A DNA stretch of 64,000 bases from Candidatus Omnitrophota bacterium. GTDB taxonomy: Bacteria > Omnitrophota > Gorgyraeia > Zapsychrales > JANLHA01. A program made the translations under genes and the position numbers. The notes below the pieces were generated by a model. That model searched no databases, was not told where the DNA came from, and worked only from the letters and a program-made list of their open reading frames with translations. The stretch is taken from the NCBI GenBank assembly GCA_020632535.1, contig JACKFJ010000001.1, forward strand, positions 346,890-410,889, read 5' to 3'. Shown here piece by piece: positions 29,693-49,253 of this stretch. Each line of letters starts with the position of its first letter. The stretch's first letter is position 1.

Positions 29693-30250
29693 ATGATTGA
29701 ACATGAAATGCTTTTTCTTGGGCTTTTAGTTGACGGTCCCAAGCATGGGTACGAGATTAAGCGCAAAATTGACGAGGAACTTTTTCCGTTTGTCGGGTTG
29801 AAAGTCAAGTCGATTTACTATCCATTAAAAAAAATGGAGCAGTTGAAATTAATTCACAAAGATGTTGGTCGTGAAGGAAAGTATCCCGAAAAGTTTGTTT
29901 ACAGTATCACGCCGCAGGGTCGTAAAATCTTTGATCATCTAATCACCGATAGTTTTGTTTCGATTGAGCGGCCTTTCTTTAATATTGATCTTTCTTTGTA
30001 TTTTTTGCCTTATGTCGATCAGAAAATTGCGCATAAGAAGTTGCGGGGGCGCGTTATTTTTTTGAAGCGAATCAAGCGTGACTTGACCGTTTTGCATCAC
30101 AAGCACTCGCCGAATCTTGAGCAACATTTGTCCATTATTCTTGAGCATGATTTAGACCTTGTCGAAGCTGAAATCAAGTCTTTGACCCGCCTGTTGGACA
30201 TGCTGCAAGTCCCACCTAAATCTCCCAAATCTGACCGAAGAAGTGCTTGA
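29693..30250 (+). CDS. PadR-family transcriptional regulator (long form with C-terminal domain)
   Basis: LLVDGPKHGYEIKRKI ... SIYYPLKKMEQLKLI ... KFVYSITPQGRK, the winged-helix PadR signature. Confidence 0.8.
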   Translation: MIEHEMLFLGLLVDGPKHGYEIKRKIDEELFPFVGLKVKSIYYPLKKMEQLKLIHKDVGREGKYPEKFVYSITPQGRKIFDHLITDSFVSIERPFFNIDLSLYFLPYVDQKIAHKKLRGRVIFLKRIKRDLTVLHHKHSPNLEQHLSIILEHDLDLVEAEIKSLTRLLDMLQVPPKSPKSDRRSA

Positions 30251-30274
30251 CAACAAAGTATTTTTTACTAAAAT
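30247..30274 (+). promoter_or_regulatory. candidate sigma70-type promoter of the accessory locus, overlapping the PadR stop codon
   Basis: TTGACA (30247-30252; the PadR TGA is 30248-30250), 16 nt spacer, TAAAAT (30269-30274). An AT-rich 150-nt leader follows. Confidence 0.45.
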
Positions 30275-30404
30275 CAAAGTATTAAAATTTTACTAGTATT
30301 GTGCTTTCTTTCTAATTGTAATTTGATTTAAGAGAGAAAGCATCATGCTGTACCACAATCATTTTAATCAGGCTGTAATGACTCAATTACTATAAGTACT
30401 ACAT

Positions 30405-31928
30405 ATGAATACATTTGCAATTCTTCAAGAAAATGCCGCAAAGTATGGAAATAAGCCAGCTCTTATTTTTCATGATCATATTGTGACGTTTGCTGATCTT
30501 CCGGCTAAGGTTTTTCGCTTGGCGAATGCTTTGCAGAAGGCGGGATTGCAAAAAGGCGACCGTCTTGGGATTTGTCTTGCGAATGGCCCTGAATTTGTTT
30601 ATGCGTATTTAGCGGGCTTTATTTGTGGCGCGGTGGTTGTTCCGCTTGACTTTATGCTTAAAAGTGATGAGATTTCTTCATGTTTAACGCACTCGGAAGC
30701 AAAAATTTTTATTGCTGCTGATCGTCCTGATCTTAATCTTTCTGTTATTCGTGACACAATTCCAACTCTCAGAGAAACGATTGTTTTTAATCGTGAAAAA
30801 GGCGCGGCCAATCCATTTCAACAATGTCTCGACGCCTCTTTTGAATCACCATTAAAAGTTGAAGTCAATGACACTGATCCTGCTTTAATTATGTATACAT
30901 CGGGAACAACTGGAAGCCCCAAGGGGATTTTGCTTAACTATCAGCATCTAAAGGGTTCGCCGGAAGCGATGAAGTACTTTGTCGATTTAACGGATAAAGA
31001 CATTAAGCTTGCCGCGATTCCCTTTAGTCATGTTGCTGGGTTTATTTATATTCAAAACTGCATCATTTTTGGTATTACGCTCGTGATTATGGACCGTTTT
31101 AACCCGTATGAATTTTTGCGGCTTGTTCAGGAGCATAAGGTGAGCTGTTTTCACATTGTTCCGGCGATGTATACAGCACTTTTGTCGTTAAAACAGATTG
31201 AAAAATTTGATTTGTCATCATTGCGATGGGTTGTGGTTTTTGGCGCTCCAAGCTCGCCTGAAATTATGGAGCGTTTTCATAAATATTGTCCTAACGCGCA
31301 ATTGCTTAATGGTTGGGGCATGACCGAAACTTGTCCGCCTAACACGGTGACACCTTTAGGCAGTCGCAATATCGCCAGCGTCGGCAAACCTTCACCATTA
31401 TCTGAAATCAAGATTGTTGATGAAGAGGATCGTGAAGTTGCCGTGGGGAAAATCGGTGAGATTTTGATACGTGGCTGGATTGTGATGAAGGAATATTATA
31501 AAGATCCCGAAAGCACTGCGCAGATGAAGCGCAATGGGTGGCTTTATACGGGTGATATTGGTCGTAAAGATGAGGAAGGGTTCATTTATATCGTCGGACG
31601 TAAAAAAGAAATGATCAAAGTCGCGGGGCAAATTGTTTACGCGCCAGAAGTTGAGTCTGCTTTTTACAAGCATGAATCTGTTCTTGAAGCCGCAGTTATT
31701 GGTGTGGCTGATGATATGCGCGGGGAGGTCGTTAAAGCTTTTATTGTTCTAAAGCAAGGACAGCACGTCTCTCCGGAAGATTTGCGCTATTTTGCTCGTG
31801 AGCATTTGGCGAATTTTAAAGTTCCACAAACGATCGAAATACGCGGTCAATTGCCTAAGAATCGTACGGGGAAAATTGATAAAGAAATTTTAAAATGCGA
31901 AAGGAAAAGCGATGCAAAATATGCGTAA
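30405..31928 (+). CDS. acyl-CoA synthetase / AMP-dependent ligase (ANL superfamily)
   Basis: MYTSGTTGSPKG (A3), GWGMTE, YTGDIGRKDEEGFIYIVGRKKEMIK and PKNRTGKI (A10 Lys). Confidence 0.85.
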   Translation: MNTFAILQENAAKYGNKPALIFHDHIVTFADLPAKVFRLANALQKAGLQKGDRLGICLANGPEFVYAYLAGFICGAVVVPLDFMLKSDEISSCLTHSEAKIFIAADRPDLNLSVIRDTIPTLRETIVFNREKGAANPFQQCLDASFESPLKVEVNDTDPALIMYTSGTTGSPKGILLNYQHLKGSPEAMKYFVDLTDKDIKLAAIPFSHVAGFIYIQNCIIFGITLVIMDRFNPYEFLRLVQEHKVSCFHIVPAMYTALLSLKQIEKFDLSSLRWVVVFGAPSSPEIMERFHKYCPNAQLLNGWGMTETCPPNTVTPLGSRNIASVGKPSPLSEIKIVDEEDREVAVGKIGEILIRGWIVMKEYYKDPESTAQMKRNGWLYTGDIGRKDEEGFIYIVGRKKEMIKVAGQIVYAPEVESAFYKHESVLEAAVIGVADDMRGEVVKAFIVLKQGQHVSPEDLRYFAREHLANFKVPQTIEIRGQLPKNRTGKIDKEILKCERKSDAKYA

Positions 31929-32676
31929 AGAAATACATATGACAGGTCAAGATTTGATGGGTATGGTGCAATTGCGGCCGGAAGATTTGGGTGGGTATGC
32001 CTTAGTGCCGGGTCCCAAGGAACGCCTTGACGCGATTGTTAAGAAATTAGCAAATCCGGTTAAGAATTTTTCGTTTATGGAATACAACATGTTTACCGGT
32101 GATTATAATGGCACAAAAGTTACCGCGATTAATGGGGGACGTTTTGCGGCGGATACTGGGATCACGACGGAAATCCTTTGCAACGCGCAGGCAAAAGTTA
32201 TGATTCGCTTAGGTAGTTGCGGGGCTTTGCGCGAAGACATTAAGGTCGGAGATTTGATCGTTGTTGAAAGCACATTTAGCGGTGAGGGGGTAACGCCGTA
32301 TTATGTCGATAAAAATTTTAAAACCGTATCCGATAAGAAATTATCTGACGATCTTGTCGGCATCGCTCGAAAATCTGGCAATACTGTTCACGTCGGAAAA
32401 TGCTGGTCAACCGACGCAATTTTGAGGGAAACCCGTGAGAATGTCGGTAAAGCTGTGGCGGAAGGCGCGATTGCGGTTGATATGGTCAGTTCAGTTTTTT
32501 TAACGATTTGCCAACTTTATAAAATACCTGCCGCAGTTATTTTGGCGGTCAGTGATAATGTAATTACGGGTGAAATGGGATTTTTAAACACGGATTATTA
32601 TATGGCAGAAGGAACGATGATCAATGTCGTCTTTGACTTGATTAAACAACGGGAAGCGGCAAAAACGGGAGTTTAG
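31912..32676 (+). CDS. nucleoside phosphorylase, PNP_UDP_1 (hexameric NP-I) family; substrate unknown
   Basis: ALVPGPKERLDAI, FTGDYNGTKVTAINGG, VMIRLGSCGAL, VGDLIV and AIAVDMVSS are collinear with DeoD/Udp/MTA-phosphorylase-type enzymes. Alternative starts at 31921 and 31939. Confidence 0.75.
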   Translation: MQNMRKEIHMTGQDLMGMVQLRPEDLGGYALVPGPKERLDAIVKKLANPVKNFSFMEYNMFTGDYNGTKVTAINGGRFAADTGITTEILCNAQAKVMIRLGSCGALREDIKVGDLIVVESTFSGEGVTPYYVDKNFKTVSDKKLSDDLVGIARKSGNTVHVGKCWSTDAILRETRENVGKAVAEGAIAVDMVSSVFLTICQLYKIPAAVILAVSDNVITGEMGFLNTDYYMAEGTMINVVFDLIKQREAAKTGV

Positions 32677-32679
32677 GTT

Positions 32680-33651
32680 TTGAAAAAAGAGTCACCATTG
32701 TTTTGGCCAGCATATTTAAAGGGCGATATTCTTTTTGTCCTCGATGAGACGCTTGTCCCGAAGCAGTTAAAATACGTCAAGGTCAGGAATATCGACGAAG
32801 CGGTCGCGGTTATTTGTGAAATGAAGACGCGCGCTTTTGGACAGTTTCTTGTTGTTTTGAGTACTTTTCTTTTAGAGTTTAATCGTCAGCCGCAGTTAAA
32901 CGGTGAAGAATTGCTCGAGAAAATCCGCAATGTCGCGCACGCGCTTAATCATAGTCGTCCGACTTTTCCATTTAGTGAAGTCACGAGCGTTGTGGTACAT
33001 TGGGCGCATGGCGCTTTGGATGCAGGGCAGGATGTTCGCGCCATTGTTATAAAAAATGTGAATGGGTATTTGCAGGGGATTCGCCATCGGCGTTTGGATC
33101 GCGTGGCAAAAATTGCGGCAAATATCAAGGATGGTGATAGTGTTTTAACTCATTGTAATGTGAGCGGCGAATTGGCTATGGCCGCCGCGATATGTCGTGA
33201 ACAAAAAAAGGATGTTCAATTTTATTGCACAGAAACCCGTCCTTATTTTCAAGGCGCAAAATTGACATATTGGGAATTAAAGCAAATGGGTGCAGATGTT
33301 ACGCTCGTCGCTGATAATGCGATTGCGACATTGATGGCTGACAAAATGGTCAATAAGGTTATCGTCGGTTCGGATCGCAATTGCGCCAATGGAGACTTTG
33401 CAAATAAAATCGGGACATATCAAATTGCCGTATTGGCAAACGAGTTTAAGGTTCCGATGCTTGTTTTGACGCAACCATCACAAAAAATTAAATCAGGTGC
33501 TGATATTCCCGTTGAGATTCGTGATGAAAGTGAGTTGTTGCAGTTTAATGGTCGCAAAGTTTTTAGCAGTAAGGTCAAAGGACTTTATCCGGGTTTTGAT
33601 GTTGTTCCGCACCATTACGTGAGAAAAGAGATTGCAATCGATGTCCACTGA
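32680..33651 (+). CDS. eIF-2B alpha/beta/delta-like sugar-phosphate isomerase (MtnA / ribose-1,5-bisphosphate isomerase family)
   Basis: VLTHCNVSG, CTETRPYFQGAKLTYWELKQMGADVTLVADNA, VIVGSDRNCANGDFANKIGTYQIA. TTG start. Confidence 0.8.
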   Translation: MKKESPLFWPAYLKGDILFVLDETLVPKQLKYVKVRNIDEAVAVICEMKTRAFGQFLVVLSTFLLEFNRQPQLNGEELLEKIRNVAHALNHSRPTFPFSEVTSVVVHWAHGALDAGQDVRAIVIKNVNGYLQGIRHRRLDRVAKIAANIKDGDSVLTHCNVSGELAMAAAICREQKKDVQFYCTETRPYFQGAKLTYWELKQMGADVTLVADNAIATLMADKMVNKVIVGSDRNCANGDFANKIGTYQIAVLANEFKVPMLVLTQPSQKIKSGADIPVEIRDESELLQFNGRKVFSSKVKGLYPGFDVVPHHYVRKEIAIDVH

Positions 33652-34201
33652 GATTAAAAATGTCACGCTCATTTACGGGGCTTTTAAGGAAGATTTTTTT
33701 ACGGCTTTAAAAAAATGTCAAGTTAAGGATATTGTTGTCCTCGAAGGTCGTCCGACTTTGGAATCGAGTCGCCATGCCGTTTTGAATTTAAAAAAGATTG
33801 GAATTATTCCGACGATTATCGCGGACAATATGGCGGGTTATTTGTTTTCGAAAGGATTGGTTAAAGAAACTTGGTTAGCAAGTCAGGCGGAAGATAAGGC
33901 GGGGGCGATGTGTGAGATTGGGGCTTTGATTTTGGCTGTTTTGGCAAAAAATCATCAAATCCCGGTTTTTACATATGCCGCCGAAAAAAAGCGCAAGCCA
34001 TTGGGCAAGCCGGCCGATTTACAGAAATTTAATGGTCAAAGTGTTGTTACTGGCAAAATCAAAGCGTTCGTACCGTTGATCGAATGGGTTCCGGCAAAAT
34101 ATTTGCGCTCATTGCGAAAAAATGCAGGGCGTAAAGCCATTTCGCCGAGATTGTTGCGTCGTCCGAACGAACTCCTTGCAATAGGAGGTGCAAATGAATA
34201 A
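33641..34201 (+). CDS. short eIF-2B-like paralogue (C-terminal Rossmann-like half only)
   Basis: DIVVLEGRPTLESSRHAVLNLKKIGIIPTIIADNMAGYL ... CEIGALILAVLAKNHQIPVF mirrors the second half of the MtnA family. The N-terminal domain is absent, and both ends overlap the neighbouring genes. Confidence 0.55.
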   Translation: MSTEIKNVTLIYGAFKEDFFTALKKCQVKDIVVLEGRPTLESSRHAVLNLKKIGIIPTIIADNMAGYLFSKGLVKETWLASQAEDKAGAMCEIGALILAVLAKNHQIPVFTYAAEKKRKPLGKPADLQKFNGQSVVTGKIKAFVPLIEWVPAKYLRSLRKNAGRKAISPRLLRRPNELLAIGGANE

Positions 34202-35300
34202 TGACATTATTTTGAGTTTAAAACGAAACATCGAAGCCATTGGACGTTTGCTCTGGGAAAAAGATCTTGTTACAGGTTTGAATGGAAATATCAGCACGCG
34301 TTTGAGTGATGAAAATATTTTAATTACCGCAACCAAAACGTGTTTAGGCCTATTGCAGGAAAATGACATTGTTGAATTAGACTTGGAAGGCAATGTTGTT
34401 GGCGATGGTCAGGCTTCTAGTGAGCGCCTGTTGCATGTCGCAATTTATAAGGCATTTCCAGAAATGAGCGCGGTGGTGCATACGCACACGGCGTATACCA
34501 ATGCTTATTTTCTTGAGAATGACAGTTTGACGCCGCGGATTTTTGAATCCAAATTGTATTTAGGTGATGTCAGCGCGGTCCCGCAATTGACGCCCGCTGT
34601 TTCGGATGTTGGGCCGGTTCTTGAAGCTCTTAAGTCCAACAGTATTGTTGTGTTAAAAAATCATGGTGTTGTCGCGATGGGAAAAGATTTGTTTGATTGT
34701 TTTCTTCTTGTGCAGTGCTTGGAAGAGGCGGTCAAGATTGACGCGATTAGCCGTTTGTATCATCGTTTTACAGATGTCAATGATTTGAAACCTTCTTTGA
34801 AGATCGGGAAACCTGAAGTCGCCAGCAAAAAAGTTGAACCTAAGGTTAAGAAATTGCCAGATTCTTTCTCGCAAGAGGAGCTTGATTCAACTGCAAAGAT
34901 TTCAGAAAGTCCGGTGGTGCCTAAAAAATTTAAACTTTTTTCGGGTGAACAGATTGGTGAAATTGTCCGTTTGGTTAATGCTGATGTGCAAATGCAAGAT
35001 CTCGGCAAGAAGACAAAAATGACGATGTCTTTGGCCGTTAAACTCAATGAGACCGGTGAGGTGTTTTGTTTTCATTTTGAAGATGGGCAGATTATTGAAA
35101 TTGATAAAGACAAAGAGCCCGAATTTTTAATTTCCGCGCCCGAAAATATTTGGCGCGCGGTGTTTAATCGGCAAATTGATCCATTTGTCGCGACAACGCA
35201 AAAGAAAATGCACTTGCAGGGCGATTTCGCTAAGATTTCCAAATGGTATGCGCCGTGCAGTCGTATTTTTGAACTTTGGGCACAGGTTCCAATCGAATAA
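34188..35300 (+). CDS. class II aldolase/adducin-domain protein fused to a C-terminal SCP2-like lipid-binding domain
   Basis: N-terminal part: GLNGNISTRL, ASSERLLHVAIY, AVVHTHT (Zn His ligands), LKNHGVVAMG. C-terminal part: EFLISAPENIWRAVFNRQIDPFVATTQKKMHLQGDFAKISKW resembles the SCP2 C-terminal pattern. Confidence 0.75.
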   Translation: MQMNNDIILSLKRNIEAIGRLLWEKDLVTGLNGNISTRLSDENILITATKTCLGLLQENDIVELDLEGNVVGDGQASSERLLHVAIYKAFPEMSAVVHTHTAYTNAYFLENDSLTPRIFESKLYLGDVSAVPQLTPAVSDVGPVLEALKSNSIVVLKNHGVVAMGKDLFDCFLLVQCLEEAVKIDAISRLYHRFTDVNDLKPSLKIGKPEVASKKVEPKVKKLPDSFSQEELDSTAKISESPVVPKKFKLFSGEQIGEIVRLVNADVQMQDLGKKTKMTMSLAVKLNETGEVFCFHFEDGQIIEIDKDKEPEFLISAPENIWRAVFNRQIDPFVATTQKKMHLQGDFAKISKWYAPCSRIFELWAQVPIE

Positions 35301-36803
35301 ATGACAACGATCAAAACACAAATTCAGGAATTTAAGTTTTCTGTCAACGGCAATTTACGCCATGGCCGTGACGGAAAGTTCTTTGACTGTGTCAATCCTT
35401 CGACGGGTGACGTGTTTGCGAAAGTCGCGGATGCTAGCGTAGAAGACATGAAAGACGCGATCGCCAGCGCGCGTTACGCTTTTGACTGTGGCGAGTGGTC
35501 GGGTTTCAAACCCGAGGACCGTGGAAAATATTTAGCACAATTTGCAAATTTGATCCGGGAGAACGCCAAACTTCTCGCGGAATTAGAAATGCTTTCGACC
35601 GGCAAGACTTTAAAGCACACGACCTTTATCGACGTGCCGACTTGCGCGGATACATTTGAGTATTTTGCTGGTGCCGGTGCTCTTTTAAATGATGTGCCCA
35701 ATCCCGTTTCGGGTCCGGTTAAAAGTGTGACAGCGTATGAGCCGATGGGTGTTGTTGGGAGTATTATTCCGTGGAATTATCCCCTGATTATGCTGGCGTG
35801 GAAAATCGCGCCGGCACTTTTAGCAGGCAATACCGTTGTGTTAAAACCGTCGTCGTTGGCGAGTGTGTCGATCGCAAAATTTGCCGAAATCATTGAGCAA
35901 GCCGGTTTACCCAAGGGCGTTTTAAACATCGTAACAACAAGTCGCCACGAAGTGGCTGAAGTACTCGTGAAAAGTAAAAGTGTTGATATGATTAGTTTTA
36001 CCGGCGGCACCGAGACAGGTAAAGAGATCATGAAAATGTGCAGTGAGACGACAAAAAAACTTTCTTTAGAGCTCGGCGGGAAATCGCCGACAATTATTTT
36101 TGAAGATTGTGACTTAGAAACCGCTGTCGGCGGCACAATGTCCGCGATTTTTATTAATCAAGGACAAATGTGCACGGCGGGTTCACGACTTTTGATTGAT
36201 GAAAAGATTGCCGAGCCATTTTTGCGGCTGCTTGTCGAGAAGACAAAAAGTTTAAAAATCGGCCCCGCGACGAGTTACGAAACGGATTTTGGCCCATTAA
36301 TTAACGTCGCGCATCGCGATAAAGTTTTAGAGTGTATTAAAAAAGGTATCAAAGAAGGCGCGGTGGTTTTGTGCGGCGGTAAAATTCCCGAATCGGAAGA
36401 ATTAAAAAGTGGTGCGTACATTGAACCGACGATTTTAAGCAAAGTCAATAATCAAATGACCGTCGCGCGGGAAGAAATTTTCGGACCGGTTTTGGTGGTC
36501 ATGAAATTTAAGGATGAGGACGAAGCTGTTTTGGTCGCCAATGATTCCTCATACGGTTTGGCGGCGTCAGTATGGAGTAAGGATTTAGTAAAGGCAAATC
36601 GTGTCGCGAAAAAATTGCAGTGCGGCACTGTGTGGATCAATACATACGGCGCATTTTTTAATGAAGCCCCTTTTGGGGGATATAAGCAAAGTGGATTTGG
36701 GCGGCAATTGGGTCTTGAGGGTTTGTTGGCCTACACACAATCCAAACATATCTGCATTGATCAAACTCCGGGAGGTCGTCCGCTTGTTGCGGCATGGTTC
36801 TGA
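35301..36803 (+). CDS. NAD(P)+-dependent aldehyde dehydrogenase
   Basis: PWNYPL, FTGGTETGK, LELGGKSP (catalytic Glu), NQGQMCTAGSR (catalytic Cys) and EEIFGPV. Confidence 0.9.
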   Translation: MTTIKTQIQEFKFSVNGNLRHGRDGKFFDCVNPSTGDVFAKVADASVEDMKDAIASARYAFDCGEWSGFKPEDRGKYLAQFANLIRENAKLLAELEMLSTGKTLKHTTFIDVPTCADTFEYFAGAGALLNDVPNPVSGPVKSVTAYEPMGVVGSIIPWNYPLIMLAWKIAPALLAGNTVVLKPSSLASVSIAKFAEIIEQAGLPKGVLNIVTTSRHEVAEVLVKSKSVDMISFTGGTETGKEIMKMCSETTKKLSLELGGKSPTIIFEDCDLETAVGGTMSAIFINQGQMCTAGSRLLIDEKIAEPFLRLLVEKTKSLKIGPATSYETDFGPLINVAHRDKVLECIKKGIKEGAVVLCGGKIPESEELKSGAYIEPTILSKVNNQMTVAREEIFGPVLVVMKFKDEDEAVLVANDSSYGLAASVWSKDLVKANRVAKKLQCGTVWINTYGAFFNEAPFGGYKQSGFGRQLGLEGLLAYTQSKHICIDQTPGGRPLVAAWF

Positions 36804-36900
36804 CTAAAACATCCTCGGACTATCGCGATTTTTCTTATGACAAAAATCATCAGTTGGTTGAAAAAGTAATTTTAAAAACAGTAAATAAGGAGCAAGCACA

Positions 36901-38388: not shown

Positions 38389-38398
38389 AGGGAATGTA

Positions 38399-38686
38399 AT
38401 GACAACGACATTTATCAAAATGCATTGGGATCCAAAAACCGAAGAATTGTTTTTGGCCACGATCAAAAAGATTCCGCTTTTTCATCGGGACATCGCCCGC
38501 GAAGTTGTGGAAAAAAAGGCACAGATTAACGCGCAGGCGCGAGGATCGACTTCGGTCGAAGAAAGCGATGTCGTCGATGCGTTTTTCTCGGAAGTTCCCA
38601 AAGCATTCTATAGTTTAATGGTCCGAATTTTAGATGAGGCAGGTTTAGATTATGGCAAGCATATTTCCGCGCAAGGCAAAAAGTAA
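38399..38686 (+). CDS. small PCP_red-like (protochlorophyllide-reductase C-terminal-domain-like) protein
   Basis: W-x5-E-x8-KIPLFHRDIAREVVEKKAQINAQARGSTSVEESDV follows the pattern I recall for PF08369 proteins that accompany BchE-type rSAM enzymes. Confidence 0.45.
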   Translation: MTTTFIKMHWDPKTEELFLATIKKIPLFHRDIAREVVEKKAQINAQARGSTSVEESDVVDAFFSEVPKAFYSLMVRILDEAGLDYGKHISAQGKK

Positions 38687-39143: not shown

Positions 39144-39160
39144 AGTTGGAGTCATTCAAA

Positions 39161-40251: not shown

Positions 40252-40270
40252 CTGAGGGATGGAGTTTTAT

Positions 40271-42865: not shown

Positions 42866-42884
42866 TGATTATTAGGAGGAGTGT

Positions 42885-43115
42885 ATGTCAGTTGAAGAGC
42901 AAGTCAAAGCTGTTTTTAAAAAAGTCCTTGATATCAATCCATCCGAAATCAAACCCAATGAACAGTTAGGCGCGTCATTAGGCATTGATTCAACGGAATT
43001 AGTTGAGATTTCCGTCGGGATCAAAAAGGAAATTGGAGTTGCGTTAGCGGATAGCGAACTTAAAAAATCACACACATTTAACGAAATCATCAAAATCATT
43101 GAGTCAAAGAAATAA
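42885..43115 (+). CDS. acyl carrier protein (PKS-associated)
   Basis: 76 aa, four-helix pattern, phosphopantetheine-attachment motif LGIDSTELVE. RBS aggagga. Confidence 0.85.
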   Translation: MSVEEQVKAVFKKVLDINPSEIKPNEQLGASLGIDSTELVEISVGIKKEIGVALADSELKKSHTFNEIIKIIESKK

Positions 43116-43123
43116 TAAAAACA

Positions 43124-43232: not shown

Positions 43233-43245
43233 AAAGCAGGTAATT

Positions 43246-44043
43246 ATGATCATCGACCTTTCCTTACCTATCGACGACAAACTCGTCGAAACCCATGATG
43301 CCAAAATCGACCGCATTTCGCATGCACAAGGTGTTGAGCATTTTAATTGGGTTGTTATGAAAAATCAGCCCGGCGGTCAAGAACGTTTTGACAAAGGCGA
43401 GCGCGTCGCGACCAAAGAAGAAATTCCTGACGGCGAAATGTTATCACTCGAAATCGTTCATTCATCCGTTCATATGGGTAGTCACGTTGACGCGCCGTTT
43501 CATTATGGCAGCACATGCGAAGGCAAGCCTGCCAAGCAAATTATGGATGTTCCGCTTGAGTGGTGTCTTGGTCCCGGTGTTGTTTTAGATTTTACCCACA
43601 TTCAATTTCCCGCCGCAATTGGCAAAAAAGATGTACAAGACGCTTTAGCAAAAATCAATTACAAACTAAAACCGATGGATATTGTTTTGCTTTATACTGG
43701 CGGTGACAAGTTGCTCGGCACAGATGATTATGTTAATAAATATGTCGGTTGCACAGTAGACGCGATTGAATATTTGCTGGATCAGGGTATCAAGATGATG
43801 GGTGTGGACACGATTGGTTTAGATCGGCCATGCTTTTTGATGTTTAAGGAATTTTTGACGACGAAAGATAAGAGTAAGATTTGGCCATGCCATTTCTTGG
43901 GTCGTCGTAGGGAATATTGTCACATGGAGCGCTTGGGAAATTTGGGCGCGATACCCAAACCATTTGGTTTTACGGTTTCTTGTTTGCCGGTTAAAGTTAG
44001 AAATGCCGGAGCGGGATGGAGCCGCGTTGTCGCGATTGTTTAA
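43246..44043 (+). CDS. cyclase-family protein (PF04199; kynurenine-formamidase / putative polyketide cyclase fold)
   Basis: The family motif HxGTHxDxPxH is present as HMGSHVDAPFH. Also MGVDTIGLD. Confidence 0.75.
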   Translation: MIIDLSLPIDDKLVETHDAKIDRISHAQGVEHFNWVVMKNQPGGQERFDKGERVATKEEIPDGEMLSLEIVHSSVHMGSHVDAPFHYGSTCEGKPAKQIMDVPLEWCLGPGVVLDFTHIQFPAAIGKKDVQDALAKINYKLKPMDIVLLYTGGDKLLGTDDYVNKYVGCTVDAIEYLLDQGIKMMGVDTIGLDRPCFLMFKEFLTTKDKSKIWPCHFLGRRREYCHMERLGNLGAIPKPFGFTVSCLPVKVRNAGAGWSRVVAIV

Positions 44044-44061
44044 TTTATGGAGGATTCGCTG

Positions 44062-44565
44062 ATGTTTAAAAAATTAATATTAGGTATGTTTATTTTTCTT
44101 TTGACGAGTGTAGCGTCGGCGGATGTTTTGGTGTTTAAATCAGGAAAGACTGTTGAAGGACTTATCACTAAAGTCACCGAAACAGGTATTACCTTTCAAT
44201 CAGGGAATGATACTTTAGGCGTAAGCTATACGCAAATCAAGGATATCCGTGAATCGACTGGGCCGAATGCAAGAAATAGTCCCCATATCGCGATAGCCCG
44301 AGGAGACGGTGTTTCGCAAGCGAGTGCTGGGACTCAAACAAAAAAAGTGGTTGTGTATATGACAAGTTGGTGTGGGTATTGTCGAAAAATGACCGCTTTT
44401 TTAAAGCAAAATGGAATAGCTTACACTGCGCATGATATTGAAAAGAATGATATGGCCAAGAAGATGTATCAAAAGTATGGTGGACAGGGTGTTCCTCTTG
44501 TCATTGTTGGCGAGAAGGTCATTCGTGGTTATAATCCTGATGGCGTTGTTGCCGCGTTGCGATAA
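44062..44565 (+). CDS. exported glutaredoxin/thioredoxin-fold protein
   Basis: Signal peptide MFKKLILGMFIFLLTSVASA. C-terminal VVVYMTSWCGYCRKM (CxxC) ... GVPLVIVGEKVIRGYNP. An alternative upstream start exists at 44047. Confidence 0.7.
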   Translation: MFKKLILGMFIFLLTSVASADVLVFKSGKTVEGLITKVTETGITFQSGNDTLGVSYTQIKDIRESTGPNARNSPHIAIARGDGVSQASAGTQTKKVVVYMTSWCGYCRKMTAFLKQNGIAYTAHDIEKNDMAKKMYQKYGGQGVPLVIVGEKVIRGYNPDGVVAALR

Positions 44566-44573
44566 AGATAATT

Positions 44574-44852
44574 GTGAGTGAAGAAAATTATAAATTTAAT
44601 ATTCCTGACGAAATTTACGGTCAAGTCATCGATGGCATTGATTTGCAGATTTTAAGCTCGGACTCGGTGCGGATTATCGAAGCGTATGTAAAGCAGGAAG
44701 GGGAGCTAAGCGAAATTCAAGAACGGGTTTTACATCAATGCGAGCGTGAGCTTCAGGTAGTTATTCTTAAGACTGAAGGTAAGCTTCGTGAATATTTTAA
44801 GCAGGTTTTGCACGGCATCATGGATGTCATTAAAAAGTTGAAGCATATATAA
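44574..44852 (+). CDS. hypothetical protein (92 aa, GTG start)
   Basis: ORF only. Helical, acidic, no motif recognised. Confidence 0.4.
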   Translation: MSEENYKFNIPDEIYGQVIDGIDLQILSSDSVRIIEAYVKQEGELSEIQERVLHQCERELQVVILKTEGKLREYFKQVLHGIMDVIKKLKHI

Positions 44853-44867
44853 ACATTCGGAGGTCAG

Positions 44868-44907
44868 TTATGGGACACACACGTAATTCAATTGTTATCA
44901 GTGCACC
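44868..44907 (+). repeat. 40-bp direct repeat, upstream copy (duplicated RBS-proximal 5' end of the aromatase/cyclase gene)
   Basis: ttatgggacacacacgtaattcaattgttatcagtgcacc is identical to 45452-45491. Weaker similarity extends ~10 nt further upstream (cggag..ag). Creates a 16-codon stub ORF, 44870-44920. Confidence 0.9.
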
Positions 44908-44949
44908 TGATCGATTTTAATTTAGAACTATACCTCGAAAGGACATAAA

Positions 44950-45135
44950 ATGATATCTCCCAAAAAAGAAATGACAAAAATTATTGAACGACAGCCAGAG
45001 GACAGCTCGTATGACGAAATCCTTCGTGAACTTGCTTTTGCCCGAATGATTGACCGTGGACTAAGCGACTCCAAGGCTAAGCGTACAATTAGTAATGCGC
45101 AAATGAAACAAAGGATTGTTAAGTGGCAGAAATAA
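44950..45135 (+). CDS. type II antitoxin (ParD/RelB-like addiction-module component)
   Basis: 61 aa. SYDEILRELAFARMIDRGLSDSKAKRTISNAQMKQRI is the pattern of small antitoxins paired with ParE/RelE toxins. Overlaps the toxin start by 13 nt. Confidence 0.65.
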   Translation: MISPKKEMTKIIERQPEDSSYDEILRELAFARMIDRGLSDSKAKRTISNAQMKQRIVKWQK

Positions 45136-45425
45136 AGTGGACCAAAGAAGCGCAAACTTGGCTTAAGGATATCCATGATTATATCGCGCTTGAAAATGCG
45201 AAGGCAGCAGCCAAAATTATTGAAGAAATTTTTCAGAGGGCACAGATTTTAAAACGTTTGCCGGAGATTGGTTACAAATATGATCGTTACCCCAATGTTA
45301 ATATCCGTATTTTGCTTTACGGGCATTATCGTATCGCGTATTTGATTAAAAGGGATCACAATATTGATATTTTGGGTGTTTTTCATGGCGCGTTAGATAT
45401 TGATCGGTACATTCAAAAATCGTAA
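45123..45425 (+). CDS. type II toxin, RelE/ParE family
   Basis: 100 aa. IKWTKEAQTWLKDIHDYIA ... GHYRIAYLIKRDHNIDILGVFHGALD is the typical ParE/plasmid-stabilisation toxin layout. GTG start. Confidence 0.75.
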   Translation: MAEIKWTKEAQTWLKDIHDYIALENAKAAAKIIEEIFQRAQILKRLPEIGYKYDRYPNVNIRILLYGHYRIAYLIKRDHNIDILGVFHGALDIDRYIQKS

Positions 45426-45451
45426 TAATATAAATTAAAACGGAGATAAGT

Positions 45452-45491
45452 TTATGGGACACACACGTAATTCAATTGTTATCAGTGCACC
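45452..45491 (+). repeat. 40-bp direct repeat, downstream copy (authentic 5' end of the aromatase/cyclase gene)
   Basis: Identical to 44868-44907. Confidence 0.9.
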
Positions 45492-45909
45492 GTATAGTTT
45501 GGTTTTCGACATTTCCAATAAGATTGAACGTTGGACAGAATTGTTCGGCGATGAATATGTGAGCGCCGAAGTTTTGGAACGCAAGGACAATGAAATTGTT
45601 TTTCGCTTAACCGACGACGAAAAAAAGTCGTGGGTTTCCAAACGATGGCTTTTTAAGGAACACAATCTCGCGTATGCGTCACGGTATGAGCCGATGTTTC
45701 CGTTTCGCTATATGAAAATTATCTGGCTGTATAACGAAACTTCCGAAGGCACGGAAATGATTTGGATGCAGGATTTTGCGATGGATGAAAAATTTACCAA
45801 ATTCACAGAGACACAGATTGAAGGCTTTATTAATGAGCATTCACAGCATAATATGAAAATATTTAAAAAGGTCATTGAGGCTGAGGCTAAAGTAACAGTG
45901 GACAAATAG
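45454..45909 (+). CDS. SRPBCC aromatase/cyclase (TcmN N-terminal-domain / WhiE-ORFVI-like ARO/CYC)
   Basis: TRNSIVISAPYSLVFDISNKIERWTELFGDEY ... SWVSKR ... FRYMKIIWLY ... GTEMIWMQDFAMDE parallels the TcmN ARO/CYC sequence as I recall it ([30 protein letters not shown] ... MRWVQEFDM). Confidence 0.8.
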   Translation: MGHTRNSIVISAPYSLVFDISNKIERWTELFGDEYVSAEVLERKDNEIVFRLTDDEKKSWVSKRWLFKEHNLAYASRYEPMFPFRYMKIIWLYNETSEGTEMIWMQDFAMDEKFTKFTETQIEGFINEHSQHNMKIFKKVIEAEAKVTVDK

Positions 45910-45910
45910 T

Positions 45911-46100
45911 CCTGTCATTCCTGCAATCTTTTATCGGGAATCCATGAATATAAGTAATCCTGTCATTCCCGCAATCTTTTAGCGGGAATCCATGAATATA
46001 AGTGGATCCCCGATAGTAACATTCGGGGATGACATGTTGAATCATTCGGGGATGACATGTTGAATCATTCGGGGATGACATGTTGAATCATTGGGGATGA
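45911..46100. repeat. family-A repeat cluster, copy 4: a 48-nt unit x2, then a 23-nt unit x3.5
   Basis: cctgtcattcc(t/c)gcaatctttta(t/g)cgggaatccatgaatataagt at 45911-45958 and 45959-46003. attcggggatgacatgttgaatc at 46021-46043, 46044-46066 and 46067-46089, plus a partial attggggatga at 46090-46100. Confidence 0.9.
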
Positions 46101-47245
46101 GAAGGCTGGGAGTTTGTATTAGTAGTCGCAAAGTCACGTTTTTTCTTTTTTGTCTGGCGAATGTAACAATTTCGTTTAATTTTGCGGCTTTGGCTGCAGC
46201 AGTACCTCTGATGAGCAAGGGACTGCAGCAAAGCGAAAATGTTGTTTCTCAGATTTCCGCGTATTACATGATTCCATATGGAATCGGCGCGCTTATCTAC
46301 GCGCCTTTAGCGCGAATGATAAGCGTAAAGTGGATTCTCGCGGTCGCGATGGCGGTGTATGGAATTTTAAGTTTTGTTTGCGCGCTAAATTCGTCAATTA
46401 CGATCATTCTCGGAACTCGAGTTGTGATGGGTTTAGCGGCAGCGTGCGTAATTCCTTTATGTTTGATTTCAGTGGGAAGCATATTTGAAAAAGATGTTCG
46501 TGGCCGCATGGTCGGTTTATTTTTCTCGACGAGCTTTATCGCGTCTGTTGCCGGCATAGCTGTTAGTGGATTGTGTGATTGGCGCTGGCTGTTTATTGTG
46601 CCGGGCATTTTGGGTATTGTGACTGCCATTTTTATGGTATATGGCGCCCAAGCCATTCTAAAAGTAGGGCAGCTGCCCCCAGTTGATTATTTGCGAGTTT
46701 GGCGACAAAAGAGTGTCAGAAATATTTTGTTGTTTATTTTTGTGTTGAGCTTTTTGTATCACGGGATTCATAAATGGCTCGCGGTTTATTTACATCGTCA
46801 ATACGGATTAGAGCAGTGGGCCATTAGCGCGCTTTTTATTCTCATCGCGTTGACCGGCGCGGTTGGGCAAAATGTGGGCGGATATATCACGGATCATCTT
46901 GGCCGTCGTGTGGCGTGTTATTGGGGTGTGATGATTTTAGCGGCGGCGACCGTATTACTCTTCGGAAAATATTCTTTATTTATTTTAGCGGGTATTTTAG
47001 CGGTATTTTCGATGGGTTGGGCGCTTGGGCATAATGGGATTTCAACGGTTTTGACGGACTTTCCCGACGAGAACCGCAGCGAAATCGCCGGATTGAACTC
47101 CGCGATACGCTTTTTTAGCGGCGGCTTAGGGTTTTTTGTTGGTGGGCCGTTTGTCGAAAGGAACATTGCGCTCACGTTTTGTGGATTTGGCATTGTCATG
47201 TTTTTGTCTTCGTTTTTTGTTAAGAAAATTATACCGAAATCATAA
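46097..47245 (+). CDS. MFS transporter
   Basis: About 12 TM helices. MFS loop motif-like GRMVGLFF. The start (ATG 46097 or TTG 46091) lies inside the last degenerate 23-nt repeat. Confidence 0.8.
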   Translation: MRRLGVCISSRKVTFFLFCLANVTISFNFAALAAAVPLMSKGLQQSENVVSQISAYYMIPYGIGALIYAPLARMISVKWILAVAMAVYGILSFVCALNSSITIILGTRVVMGLAAACVIPLCLISVGSIFEKDVRGRMVGLFFSTSFIASVAGIAVSGLCDWRWLFIVPGILGIVTAIFMVYGAQAILKVGQLPPVDYLRVWRQKSVRNILLFIFVLSFLYHGIHKWLAVYLHRQYGLEQWAISALFILIALTGAVGQNVGGYITDHLGRRVACYWGVMILAAATVLLFGKYSLFILAGILAVFSMGWALGHNGISTVLTDFPDENRSEIAGLNSAIRFFSGGLGFFVGGPFVERNIALTFCGFGIVMFLSSFFVKKIIPKS

Positions 47246-47257
47246 AGGGGGAATGAA

Positions 47258-48031
47258 ATGGTTAATCTCAAGGGAAAGAACGCGATTATTACCGGAGCCA
47301 GCAAAGGGATTGGTAAGGCGGTGGCGATGCGCTTGGCCGAGAATGGAATTAATATTGCCATTGCTGCGCGTACCAAAGGACCGCTGGATGAAGCGGTCGC
47401 TGATATCAAAAGCAAGACTGGTGTTAAGGTTATTGGCATTGTGACCGATGTTGCCAAAATGGCAGATTTAGAAAATTTGGTAAATACAGCGATGAAAGAG
47501 TTTGGGCATATTGATATTCTTGTTAATAATGCGGGAGTTTCTAGCCAATATCTTTTCGAGAAGCAGCCGATCGAAGAATTTGAAAAACTTGTATACACCA
47601 ATTATCTTGGATATATCCGCATGATCAAATTGCTTATCGATCATTTTGTTGCCCGTAAAGGCGGCTCGATTATCAATATGGTTTCTGGATCGACGTTGGT
47701 TGATCCGATTCCGCGAACATTTTTAGTTTACAGTTCGCTAAAAGTTGGTTTGCGGGCGTTTTTAAAAGGCCTGTTTTGGGAAATGCGTGATAAGGGCATT
47801 AAGGTTACATCCATTTTGCCCGGTGTTGTCGATAGTGATTTGACGGGGCATTTGCAGGATATTACGACGGAACAAAAAGACCGGCTTATGTCGCCGCAAG
47901 CCGTCGCGGATATGGTGATGTTCGCTTTATCATGTCCGGCCAACAGTTGTCCACTGGAGCTTGCTGTCATTAATCAGCAGACGCCGTGGACCAAGCCCGT
48001 GATTGACTATGCTCAGGCACAGGCTAAATGA
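47258..48031 (+). CDS. short-chain dehydrogenase/reductase (possible polyketide ketoreductase)
   Basis: TGASKGIGKAVA (TGxxxGxG), NNAG, S...YSSLK (Ser-Tyr-Lys triad). RBS aaggggg. Confidence 0.85.
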   Translation: MVNLKGKNAIITGASKGIGKAVAMRLAENGINIAIAARTKGPLDEAVADIKSKTGVKVIGIVTDVAKMADLENLVNTAMKEFGHIDILVNNAGVSSQYLFEKQPIEEFEKLVYTNYLGYIRMIKLLIDHFVARKGGSIINMVSGSTLVDPIPRTFLVYSSLKVGLRAFLKGLFWEMRDKGIKVTSILPGVVDSDLTGHLQDITTEQKDRLMSPQAVADMVMFALSCPANSCPLELAVINQQTPWTKPVIDYAQAQAK

Positions 48032-48113
48032 GCACATGATTTACACGCGATAGCGACGTAAATCAGTAGTGCGAATTTATGCCGCCTAATTGGCGGCCAA
48101 ATAGGAGAGGGAC

Positions 48114-48347
48114 ATGGACAAAACCGTATTCGTATTTCCAAAAAACAAGTTTCAAGAAATTCGTGTCGGCATCCGCGAGTATAAGGGAAATGATTTGATT
48201 GATATCCGCACTTGGACGCTGACGCAGGGATCGGAAGAAATGGTTCCGACGGCAAAAGGTGTTTCGATTAATGTAAACCTGATCGCGGATTTAAAAAAGG
48301 CTTTAGAAGAAGTTGAGAGCGAACTAAAAAAGAATAAGTTGATCTAA
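48114..48347 (+). CDS. PC4/YdbC-like ssDNA-binding family protein
   Basis: 77 aa. EIRVGIREYKGNDLIDIRTW ... PTAKGVSI resembles bacterial PC4-fold (YdbC-type) proteins. Confidence 0.5.
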   Translation: MDKTVFVFPKNKFQEIRVGIREYKGNDLIDIRTWTLTQGSEEMVPTAKGVSINVNLIADLKKALEEVESELKKNKLI

Positions 48348-48350
48348 ATT

Positions 48351-49253
48351 ATGTCAGGTATTATTGATACCCATAGTCACTATTTTCCGCCAAAAATCGC
48401 GGAGAACACCGCCTTTTTTAAAGTCGGCTGGTCTGATCTTGATCGTCAGCTTTCGATGATGGATCAATGCGGTATCGAAAAAGCTGTTCTCCTTTATCCG
48501 ACGAGTGACGCGCATTTGAATATGGGCGGGTGGGGGAATTTAGCAAAGATTTATAATGAAGCGATTGGGTCGGTTGTTAAAAAATATCCCGATCGATTTG
48601 TCGGCGCGGGTATTTTGCCGCCGGACAATGTTGGTGAAGGTTTAAAGAATGTGATGGATTTGAATTTGAAAGTGTTGTCTTTAGCGTCGAGCTATGATGG
48701 AAAATATTTAGATGATGAAAAGTTTTTTTCTGTTTATGATTTTGCCGCAAAGGAAAATGTTGCCATTCATGTGCATCCGCAAATTATAAATCCTATTGGT
48801 GATGATCGTTTGCGTGATCCATTACTTACGCCTGTTTTGGGATATGTTTTTGACGTTTCGGTGTGTTTGGGAAAGATGATGATGGCGGGTATTTTTGACA
48901 CGTTTCCAAAAGCGAAATTTATCTTTGCGCATTATGGTGGTGTCCTTCCGGTGGTCAAAGAACGTTTTGACAACACATACCAGATGCTGCGTAAGCGCAA
49001 TTATGTTAAGGACTTAGGTCGCACTCCGGGTGAGATCTTTAAGAATTTGTATTTTGACACAAGCGGGTCAAAATCATTGGCTTCGTTACTTTGCAGCTTG
49101 GAAGTCACTGATAGTCAACACATTTTGTTCGGGAGCGATTATCCCGCCAATCAGGGTTTGGGCGAGTCAATTGATGTGATTCAAAATTCGGCGATTGCCG
49201 CAAGTGCGAAGAGTCAGATTTTACGTGATAACGTCGCGCAGATTATTAAATAA
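48351..49253 (+). CDS. amidohydrolase-2 (ACMSD-type metal-dependent hydrolase/decarboxylase) family protein
   Basis: IIDTHSHYFP (HxH), HVHP, FAHYGG and FGSDYP (terminal Asp) are typical of PF04909. Confidence 0.75.
   Translation: MSGIIDTHSHYFPPKIAENTAFFKVGWSDLDRQLSMMDQCGIEKAVLLYPTSDAHLNMGGWGNLAKIYNEAIGSVVKKYPDRFVGAGILPPDNVGEGLKNVMDLNLKVLSLASSYDGKYLDDEKFFSVYDFAAKENVAIHVHPQIINPIGDDRLRDPLLTPVLGYVFDVSVCLGKMMMAGIFDTFPKAKFIFAHYGGVLPVVKERFDNTYQMLRKRNYVKDLGRTPGEIFKNLYFDTSGSKSLASLLCSLEVTDSQHILFGSDYPANQGLGESIDVIQNSAIAASAKSQILRDNVAQIIK

Follow-up and report, generated by a model that had tools for sequence, protein, structure and literature searches.

A conserved gene array with a predicted type II polyketide synthase core beside the rRNA operon of Omnitrophota bacteria

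Type II polyketide gene clusters are normally patchy, strain-level accessories. Here we describe an array of about 19 genes that is conserved like a housekeeping operon, with the same gene order and beside the only visible rRNA operon (rrn), in a 64,000-nucleotide (nt) stretch of DNA from a Candidatus Omnitrophota bacterium (GenBank assembly GCA_020632535.1, contig JACKFJ010000001.1, positions 346,890 to 410,889 of the forward strand; this whole stretch is called the window below). The region at 30.4–49.3 kb is one co-directional block of genes, and its best explanation, judged from sequence comparison, is that it forms a single biosynthetic array with a functional minimal type II polyketide synthase (PKS) at its core, a reading to which we assign a probability of about 0.72.

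The ant cluster of Photorhabdus luminescens likewise carries a non-actinobacterial minimal PKS (AntD/AntE/AntF, with the ligase AntG, the cyclase AntC and the aromatase/cyclase (ARO/CYC) AntH; PDB 6SMO). The AMP-ligase AntG is a required part of that minimal PKS and AntH is a tridomain ARO/CYC (PMC6638757). The catalytic ketosynthase subunit (KS-alpha) of the window is 46% identical to AntD, and both clusters contain an AMP/CoA-ligase, a cyclase, an ARO/CYC and an SDR ketoreductase. However, AntH is a multidomain protein whereas the window encodes a TcmN/WhiE-type monodomain protein of 151 amino acids (aa), and the array has neither an AntB-like phosphopantetheinyl transferase nor an AntI-like hydrolase. 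Conversely, the ant cluster lacks a radical S-adenosylmethionine (SAM) enzyme, any shunt-like genes and a decarboxylase, and it encodes a pigment found sporadically, not a lineage-wide array.

The monodomain ARO/CYC is the feature shared with the Streptomyces whiE and tcm systems, in that the window protein matches WhiE-ORFVI (PDB 3TVR, 3TL1) and TcmN (2RER). KS-alpha is 45–46% identical to the Streptomyces KS-alphas and to a TcmK-like representative, but the second ketosynthase subunit (KS-beta) is just 33–36% identical to the Streptomyces chain-length factors (CLFs) and has Arg where they have Gln. Unlike those systems, the array contains no TcmI/TcmJ-type cyclases and no O2-dependent oxygenases, and the Streptomyces systems are not conserved at the phylum scale.

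A cluster on the Priestia megaterium plasmid NZ_CP026738.1 (30459–38545) and the metagenome contig Ga0075163_10074555 show the core signature of the array. Their KS-alphas are 45–52% identical to that of the window; in both, the CLF reads 'DRAS', with Arg replacing the Cys, and 'ADG' at the second His position, and the acyl carrier protein (ACP) has 'DSTE'. The Priestia cluster has three further counterparts, namely an AMP-ligase only 23% identical to that of the window, a cyclase of the PF04199 family with 42% identity and an SRPBCC protein of the TcmN-like kind with 41%. Neither cluster has the phosphorylase/MtnA/aldolase-SCP2/aldehyde dehydrogenase module, the B12 radical-SAM enzyme, the ApbA reductase or the adjacency to rrn; each has an alpha/beta hydrolase, and Priestia also has methyltransferases. 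The wider Priestia locus (L089, 28388–40441) lies on a mobilizable Bacillota plasmid, and its type II PKS cluster is uncharacterised and includes several methyltransferases and cupins. A scan of metagenomes with P0122, an environmental protein from a library of representatives, gave five loci, of which one, a short high-GC contig with a 'DRAS' CLF and a 'DSTE' ACP, was informative.

The genes upstream of the PKS resemble a different system, the dihydroxyacetone phosphate (DHAP) shunt (MtnP or MtnK, MtnA and Ald2; DrdK/DrdI/DrdA), since the predicted phosphorylase, MtnA-family isomerase and class II aldolase chemistries occur in the same order. They differ from it in having a phosphorylase of Udp/DeoD type, an additional IF-2B paralogue in truncated form and an aldolase fused to SCP2. 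The module also adds an aldehyde dehydrogenase and a FadD-like ligase and is embedded in a PKS array.

A pair of ketosynthase and CLF in Omnitrophota is not in itself new, because 'Candidatus Omnitrophica' is one of 14 phyla with entries in a published catalogue of KS–CLF pairs, which further records 'type II KS + type II FAS-like' pairs from non-actinobacteria (PMC10132072). A study of the Cariaco Basin reported 'ladderane' biosynthetic gene cluster (BGC) calls in Omnitrophota (PMC9902471). The main text of the main Omnitrophota genomics paper mentions neither secondary metabolites, BGCs nor rRNA operons, but it does remark that the origin of the aromatic precursor from which quinones are made is unexplained (PMC10066038). 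Literature queries combining Omnitrophota with ketosynthase, and Velamenicoccus with polyketide, returned nothing relevant among the searchable papers. What appears undescribed in the literature searched is the array of about 19 genes, its fixed site upstream of rrn, the Arg-type CLF, and the joining of a PKS to a nucleoside-to-aldehyde module and a BchE-like enzyme, a pairing of PKS and module that we would call unprecedented. Such an array would suggest that the ultra-small bacteria of this uncultivated and mostly anaerobic phylum make an aromatic polyketide that is central to their physiology. It would also offer an oxygen-independent tailoring set (a B12 radical-SAM enzyme and a non-oxidative decarboxylase) and a compact target for heterologous expression, while the adjacent 16S gene gives its genes a built-in taxonomic anchor in metagenomes.

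Ketosynthases, carrier protein and cyclases

All substantial open reading frames (ORFs) between 29.7 and 49.3 kb lie on the + strand; they were assigned with Pfam and NCBIfam, and every ORF named in an earlier sequence-only reading of this DNA was found there. The KS-alpha gene occupies 40259–41527 and matches PF00109 (3.8e-44) and PF02801 (1.8e-30); the start at 40271 chosen in that reading is plausible because the orthologue alignments start at residues 5–7. The Cys-His-His triad is intact as it had noticed (TISTGCTAGTDSVG with TGT at 40775–40777, FHMTD and NAHGSST), and Cys173, His278 and His313 were invariant across 81 sequences. The C-terminal PDPQCDLDYIP, in contrast, had been taken as a type II-style marker and does not discriminate, since FabF of Bacillus subtilis has PDEECDLDYVP.

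The identities of the ketosynthases and of the SRPBCC protein described below were not settled by Pfam and NCBIfam alone, and comparison with solved structures and a tree were required. In NCBIfam, FabF was the best model for both ketosynthase subunits: KS-alpha scored 458 bits and KS-beta 392 bits against the TIGR03150 cut-off of 493.75, while KS-alpha passed PRK07314 (443 bits, cut-off 387) and KS-beta fell just short of it (380 bits). When KS-alpha was compared with the PDB using phmmer, the top matches were the actinorhodin (Act) KS (1TQY_A, 402 bits) and Photorhabdus AntD (6SMO_B, 386 bits), whereas FabF structures reached at most 367 bits, the aryl-polyene KS ApeR (7F27, 4EWG) about 210 bits and the highly reducing Iga ketosynthase (6KXD) 208 bits. 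In addition, a five-residue insertion before the active site is common to KS-alpha, Act KS and AntD but is not found in FabF.

A neighbour-joining (NJ) tree was calculated from Kimura distances with 200 bootstraps, with plasmid-borne Streptomyces KS-alpha/CLF pairs, E. coli FabF and FabB, and PDB-derived sequences as references. KS-alpha was placed inside the KS-alpha clade beside AntD and sequences from Laceyella and Clostridium. Similar neighbours were found in a library of representatives at 50% identity, where the closest sequences were metagenome proteins (50–51% identity), followed by Laceyella/Thermoactinomyces proteins named at source as 'minimal PKS ketosynthase (KS/KS alpha)'. A cluster with the S. 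glaucescens 'Putative tetracenomycin C polyketide putative beta-ketoacyl synthase 1' (TcmK-like) and a Clostridium botulinum protein were further near relatives, and this library search gave no obvious Omnitrophota representative. The top library match (P0121, 869 aa) proved unrelated: it naturally joins a KS-alpha-like part, 42% identical to the window KS-alpha, and a KS-beta-like part in one chain, and it has no 'DRAS'.

KS-beta (41562–42794) starts 35 nt past the KS-alpha stop and has lost the triad, with Arg, Asn and Asp at the positions of Cys, His and His, as the sequence-only reading had described. The change of Cys to Arg and of the second His to Asp was seen in all 67 Omnitrophota orthologues, whereas the four Streptomyces CLFs compared all have Gln at the former Cys position. 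In the tree KS-beta was sister to the Streptomyces CLFs with 99% bootstrap, and the two share CLF-specific changes, namely an Asp before the active-site position, the second His replaced by Asp in 'ADG', and 'PK'. Scores and tree thus place KS-alpha outside the FabF and aryl-polyene groups and KS-beta with the CLFs. Together with the shared 'DRAS'/'DSTE' signature of the Priestia cluster and the metagenome contig, this assigns the PKS core to an uncharacterised, non-actinobacterial Arg-type branch of the type II PKSs. An elongating FabF-type ketosynthase of type II fatty-acid synthesis (FAS II) was considered and rejected: the TIGR03150 cut-off was not reached, KS-beta is catalytically dead, and plsX-fabH-fabD is encoded elsewhere in the window.

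The genes after KS-beta are those that had been recognised from the sequence, a 76-aa ACP (42885–43115; PF00550 2.3e-10, GIDSTE) and a PF04199 cyclase with a metal-dependent hydrolase fold (43246–44043; PF04199 2.9e-29, HMGSHVDAPFH). The D-S-T-E motif around the Ser of the ACP was invariant in 62 of 62 sequences, and the protein is only 28% identical to E. coli AcpP. The cyclase is the most conserved protein of the array, with a median identity of 85.6% and an invariant HxGxHxDxPxH; among solved structures it resembles metal-dependent hydrolases, and a 42%-identical homologue lies within the Priestia megaterium plasmid type II PKS cluster.

The 151-aa SRPBCC protein (45454–45909) was borderline in Pfam (PF03364 24.4 bits against a threshold of 23.4, PF10604 under the cut-off) and matched no NCBIfam model. 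By phmmer against the PDB it matched the WhiE ARO/CYC (3TL1 9.4e-26, 3TVR 1.3e-25, and also 2KF2) and TcmN (2RER, 6.4e-22, among other structures), with alignments spanning residues 2–143. In TcmN numbering it has W28, F32, Y35, W65, S67, R69, M91, W95, W108, Q110 and N136, which we take, from the structural literature on TcmN, to be pocket and catalytic residues (including Y35 and R69). These residues were conserved in 53 of 53 orthologues, while TcmN W63 is replaced by Lys or Ser. The assignment to the TcmN/WhiE-type ARO/CYC made from the sequence alone was therefore borne out by structure matches of about 1e-25 to 1e-21 and by the kept pocket. Monodomain ARO/CYCs of this type work on unreduced chains and close the first ring between C9 and C14.

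Conservation and linkage to the rRNA operon

A search with KS-alpha matched 312 species-representative genomes, and the best 80 loci, from as many Omnitrophota species, were inspected. The query also matched at least 120 protein clusters at 80–90% identity; the organism-named ones were all Omnitrophota/Omnitrophica metagenome-assembled genomes (MAGs), and one further named match was labelled just 'hydrothermal vent metagenome'. When every window protein was compared with the loci by tblastn, the order of about 19 genes from the AMP-ligase to the amidohydrolase was the same in almost all 80.

Upstream genes were counted in the 49 loci whose upstream flank was complete (10 kb). The 95-aa protein and the ApbA reductase were present in all 49, the aldehyde dehydrogenase in 48, the short IF-2B paralogue and the aldolase-SCP2 fusion in 47 each, the phosphorylase and the MtnA-like isomerase in 46 each, the radical-SAM enzyme in 44 and the AMP-ligase in 40, and the 163-aa protein was a facultative member (21/49). 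For the downstream genes, counted in the 33 loci that extend 8 kb or more in that direction, KS-beta, the ACP and the PF04199 cyclase were found in all 33, the ARO/CYC and the SDR in 32 each, the PC4-like protein in 29, and the MFS transporter and the amidohydrolase in 28 each. KS-alpha identity across loci was 73–95% (median 81%), and the median identities of KS-beta, the ARO/CYC and the radical-SAM enzyme were 76%, 74% and 78%.

The modules were permuted in three rearranged loci (L078, L079 and L042) and still formed one co-directional block, which argues for functional coupling; in L078 the AMP-ligase still adjoins the PKS. In the divergent locus L080, PadR is followed directly by the genes for the 95-aa protein, the ApbA reductase and the ketosynthases, with no upstream module between. 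A decaying pseudogene cluster was ruled out because all catalytic motifs are invariant. By these comparisons the array is deeply conserved and not a sporadic secondary-metabolite cluster, and the strong conservation of sequence and order suggests that its product is a lineage-wide, quasi-housekeeping aromatic molecule, for example a redox-active or membrane-associated one, rather than a strain-specific antibiotic.

The 16S gene (49549–51095, Rfam) starts 296 nt past the last array gene, close to the 300 nt estimated from the sequence, and opens an rRNA operon (49549–55585, + strand; Rfam and ARAGORN) of 16S, tRNA-Ile, tRNA-Ala, intron-containing 23S and 5S genes. One could suspect that the link between PKS and rRNA genes is an assembly chimera, which would make the taxonomic attribution unsafe, because metagenome assemblies are well known to break or to be wrongly joined at rRNA operons and many related contigs end within the 16S gene. 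However, of the 41 loci that include the last array gene, 35 have 16S on the same strand, starting 130–1843 nt (median 213) past that gene, and these junctions were assembled independently in MAGs from different studies. Of the six loci without a visible junction, four end no more than 220 nt past the last gene, one is the rearranged L078 and one is the divergent L079, whose 1.3-kb flank has no 16S match. The spacer between the last gene and 16S is homologous in the closest relatives, L001 and L002, GC content (0.40–0.45) and positive GC skew are continuous over the junction, and the housekeeping genes further downstream lie on the same strand. Window 16S shares 93.3% identity with the 16S gene of 'Candidatus Omnitrophota bacterium HK-STAS-OMNI-1' (L002), and full-length 16S genes of ten loci and the window were 80–94% identical pairwise, a spread that corresponds to order-level to near class-level divergence. 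Because the junction recurs in 35 of 41 loci and GC content and skew are continuous, the join is ancestral and not chimeric, the Omnitrophota attribution is safe, and the chimera is effectively refuted.

Accessory genes, proposed pathway and rival readings

The 5' end of the array is marked by a PadR-family transcriptional regulator (29693–30250; PF03551 5e-11), which was found in 11 related loci where the upstream flank permits; regulators of this family often respond to phenolic compounds. The best sigma-70-like promoter match lies between PadR and the AMP-ligase on the + strand (30247–30274, TTGACA-16-TAAAAT, 11 of 12 consensus positions), and it is a consensus match only, as total counts in the promoter and terminator scans were not above those in shuffled sequence. 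The sequence-only reading had identified the PKS genes correctly but left undescribed the genes at 30405–40159, which belong to the same conserved array.

These begin with a FadD-like AMP-dependent acyl-CoA/ACP ligase (30405–31928; PF00501 4.5e-87 and PF13193; NCBIfam NF004837 456 bits against a cut-off of 476). A PNP_UDP_1 nucleoside phosphorylase of Udp/DeoD/archaeal MTAP-like type follows (31912–32676; PF01048 3e-31). Its PDB matches were uridine phosphorylase and the S. solfataricus methylthioadenosine (MTA) phosphorylase 1JDS (63 bits), and it is nearer to Udp/DeoD than to HpnG or MqnB, with a weak secondary match to HpnG (50 bits). The MtnA-like (deoxy/methylthio)ribose-1-phosphate isomerase (32680–33651; PF01008 3.3e-50) scored above the cut-off of TIGR00524 (188.6 bits, 185.85) and below that of the mtnA equivalog TIGR00512 (204 bits, 279), and the short IF-2B/MtnA-like paralogue next to it (33632–34201; PF01008 2.2e-11) covers only the C-terminal half (profile positions 128–267). 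The class II aldolase (34188–35300) carries a C-terminal SCP2 lipid-binding domain (PF00596 1.7e-38, PF02036 2.4e-5), and this fusion aligned at full length in 55 of 57 orthologues; its PDB matches were aldolases and fuculose-1-phosphate aldolases at 60–70 bits. The module ends with an NAD(P)-dependent aldehyde dehydrogenase (35301–36803; PF00171 1.2e-173).

After a gap of about 100 nt (36803/36901) comes a B12-binding radical-SAM enzyme (36901–38388; PF02310 and PF04055, CPGKCHFC motif), for which the best model was TIGR02026 BchE (180 bits over the full length, under the cut-off), with HpnJ at 124 bits, also under the cut-off. PDB matches were weak (AprD4 54 bits, TokK 36 bits) and uninformative on the reaction. 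The next genes encode a conserved 95-aa protein with no assigned function (38399–38686; weak DUF2621 and PCP_red matches only), a weakly SRPBCC-like 163-aa protein (38652–39143; PF10604 E 0.015) and an ApbA/PanE-family NAD(P)H oxidoreductase (39146–40159; PF02558 and PF08546, TIGR00745 162.9 bits against a cut-off of 141), and a second gap of about 100 nt (40159/40259) separates them from KS-alpha.

Downstream of the ARO/CYC, Pfam upheld the identities given earlier to the MFS transporter, the SDR and the Amidohydrolase_2 protein. The transporter (46091–47245; PF07690 1.8e-38) is the least conserved array member (46% identity). The SDR, a candidate ketoreductase (47258–48031; PF00106 2.7e-49), shares 31% identity with E. 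coli FabG and 29% with a ketoreductase of a Streptomyces type II PKS. The amidohydrolase (48351–49253; PF04909 7.5e-15) belongs to the ACMSD/LigW family and is like the non-oxidative aromatic-acid decarboxylases; its best PDB matches were 5-carboxyvanillate decarboxylase (87 bits), ACMSD, and the gamma-resorcylate and 2,3-dihydroxybenzoate (2,3-DHBA) decarboxylases.

A probable pathway can be drawn from these genes. The PKS would be separate from fatty-acid synthesis, because the window has plsX-fabH-fabD at 60.7–63.7 kb (60667–63684, + strand; PF02504, PF08541/PF08545 and PF00698), and FabD of this housekeeping FAS II cluster, likely the malonyl-CoA:ACP transacylase that the PKS uses, would be available to load malonate on the ACP. 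KS-alpha and KS-beta would then make an unreduced poly-beta-keto chain, of which the ARO/CYC would close and aromatise the first ring in the C9–C14 manner, and the PF04199 enzyme may close further rings, release the chain, or both. The SDR and the ApbA-like reductase could reduce keto groups, the ACMSD/LigW-like enzyme could take off a terminal carboxylate, and the BchE/HpnJ-like B12 radical-SAM enzyme may carry out an O2-independent oxidation, cyclisation or methylation, a job done by O2-dependent oxygenases in aerobes. The MFS protein would transport the product and PadR would regulate the array. With less certainty, the phosphorylase, the MtnA-like isomerase and the class II aldolase might form a DHAP-shunt-like route that clears or uses 5'-deoxyadenosine or MTA from SAM, while the aldehyde dehydrogenase and the AMP-ligase might turn the released aldehyde into an activated acid, perhaps the primer of a PKS in which the Gln usually held responsible for decarboxylative priming is missing.

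Our confidence in any one role for the upstream module is low. By analogy, we rank highest a DHAP-shunt-type disposal of 5'-deoxyadenosine derived from the radical-SAM enzyme. A non-acetate starter made from aldehyde to acid to ligase product would come next and would fit the missing Gln and the AntG precedent. The processing of an adenosylated hydrophobic intermediate, comparable to adenosylhopane or aminofutalosine, is ranked below these and might explain the SCP2 fusion and the FadD-like ligase.

That the locus is for an aromatic polyketide, as the sequence-only reading had proposed, is supported by the KS tree and scores, the ARO/CYC match and the rrn junction, all three of which came out in its favour, and we put the probability of a functional aromatic-type PKS array at about 0.7–0.75. 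Several points weigh against it. KS-beta is without the canonical CLF Gln (the 'KSQ' decarboxylative priming residue) and scores higher against FabF (314 bits) than against the Act CLF (250 bits), and its grouping with the CLFs could partly be long-branch attraction between two degenerate lineages. The bootstrap of the KS-alpha clade is only 49–66%, in an NJ tree whose sampling was narrower than MIBiG. Most members of the PF04199 family are hydrolases, kynurenine formamidase among them, and many homologues about 40% identical to the cyclase lie outside PKS clusters. Furthermore, the AMP-ligase is FadD-like and not acetate-CoA-ligase-like, no phosphopantetheinyl transferase was found in the window, the roles given to the radical-SAM enzyme and the shunt-like module are argued by analogy only, and 'phylum-wide' is an extrapolation, since the inspection covered the 80 loci that matched the query best.

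If the ketosynthase pair were instead of a fatty-acid-like, aryl-polyene, ladderane-type or highly reducing type II kind, the product would be a lipid or polyene. This would agree with FabF being the best NCBIfam model for both subunits (with KS-alpha passing PRK07314), with the more FabF-like score of KS-beta, with the presence of an SDR, and with the position of a B12 radical-SAM gene beside the KS genes as in ladderane-type calls, given that 'ladderane' BGCs were reported in Omnitrophota MAGs (PMC9902471). We consider this very unlikely, because KS-alpha scores higher with Act KS and AntD than with FabF, the array has no FabZ/FabA dehydratase or enoyl reductase, a TcmN/WhiE-type ARO/CYC with intact pocket occurs in 32 of 33 loci, and a separate plsX-fabH-fabD cluster is present. 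Two particular forms of it were rejected as candidates: an aryl-polyene or highly reducing type II PKS, with ApeR and 6KXD at about 210 bits against 402 for Act KS and no FabZ/FabA-like gene in the array, and a ladderane-type lipid cluster, with 65.8 bits for the radical-SAM enzyme against a TIGR04072 cut-off of 360.

A different concern is the unity of the array around its PKS. Two or three unrelated conserved operons, for 5'-deoxyadenosine/MTA salvage, the radical-SAM enzyme and the PKS, might have stayed adjacent through genomic inertia beside the single rrn of small, streamlined genomes. Shunt-like genes have a self-sufficient function elsewhere, as the family and aldolase matches indicate, the two gaps of about 100 nt could hold internal promoters, and L080 lacks the upstream module between PadR and the genes leading to the PKS. 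Yet the order is kept down to 80% 16S identity, the modules of L078, L079 and L042 were reshuffled within the same co-directional block, and the known shunt includes neither a FadD-like ligase nor an aldehyde dehydrogenase. The SCP2 fusion in 55 of 57 aldolases also speaks for one system, as canonical DHAP-shunt aldolases are not known to carry it. We therefore regard separate operons as unlikely. Another reading, that the module supplies the starter or processes an intermediate, would have a 5'-substituted 5'-deoxyadenosine phosphorolysed, isomerised, cleaved by the aldolase, oxidised, and loaded by the ligase as a non-acetate primer; candidate substrates are MTA or an intermediate adenosylated by a radical-SAM enzyme as in adenosylhopane (HpnH/HpnG) and aminofutalosine (MqnE/MqnB) synthesis. 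The CLF Arg in place of the Gln linked to decarboxylative acetate priming, the FadD-like ligase that stays beside the PKS in L078, the SCP2 fusion as a hint at a hydrophobic ligand, the weak secondary matches to HpnG and HpnJ, and the precedent of AntG all point this way. The argument is purely one of analogy, however; the array has no adenosylating radical-SAM enzyme of the HpnH/MqnE type, its phosphorylase is nearer to Udp/DeoD than to HpnG/MqnB, and the Priestia and metagenome clusters combine an Arg-type CLF with no shunt module, so that this reading too is doubtful. A bolder extension, in which Omnitrophota depend on the aromatic polyketide as a primary metabolite (for example an anaerobically matured quinone-like redox carrier or the head group of a prenylated quinone) with a primer or building block from the ribose of SAM or adenosine, would couple the phosphorylase-isomerase-aldolase-dehydrogenase-ligase route to the BchE-like radical-SAM enzyme. 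This seems improbable, more so than either of the two preceding readings. If true, it would place a type II PKS in core metabolism with a new starter-unit logic, and it might explain why many Omnitrophota have a 4-hydroxybenzoate polyprenyltransferase without chorismate-pyruvate lyase (PMC10066038).

Variable slot and surroundings of the array

Between the cyclase and ARO/CYC genes lies a variable slot (44047–45425), in which GC content dips to 0.39 and whose length in related loci ranged from about 0.8 to 5 kb. In the window it encodes an exported glutaredoxin-like protein (44047–44565; PF00462), a 92-aa ORF, and a 61-aa ORF overlapping the gene of a ParE toxin (45123–45425; PF05016), the last two being a probable toxin-antitoxin pair. 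Across the 80 loci, orthologues of the glutaredoxin-like and ParE genes were absent and those of the 92-aa ORF occurred in three; therefore this insert is outside the conserved system. Accordingly, the CxxC protein that the sequence-only reading had counted in the PKS set is encoded there, and Pfam confirmed its glutaredoxin-like identity, but it is not a member of the conserved set.

The PC4/p15-like protein of 77 aa (48114–48347; PF02229 9.9e-13), with a single-stranded-DNA-binding fold, is encoded between the SDR and the decarboxylase-like amidohydrolase, about 1.2 kb upstream of 16S, and was 74% identical across the loci that have it, with no obvious biosynthetic role.

On a larger scale, the PKS array is flanked by glycogen-metabolism genes (14.9–25.8 kb) and the rrn/FAS region. 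The block downstream of rrn (55632–63684) contains the housekeeping genes recG, rsmD-like, coaD, yceD, plsX, fabH and fabD. All assigned genes across the 64 kb are on the + strand, GC skew is positive over the entire window, and one unassigned 165-aa ORF (55632–56129) is on the − strand. An ORF of 1171 aa at 617–4132 had no Pfam match at E ≤ 1e-4.

The 23S gene (51657–55327) is 3671 nt long, owing to an insertion of about 712 nt at E. coli position ~1917/1918 (53630–54341). The insertion encodes a LAGLIDADG homing endonuclease ORF of 185 aa (53761–54318; PF00961 2.7e-21) and contains a sub-threshold group I intron match (54103–54286, 30.8 bits, E 7.6e-6), and overall it resembles a group I intron, here within the 23S gene of a bacterium.

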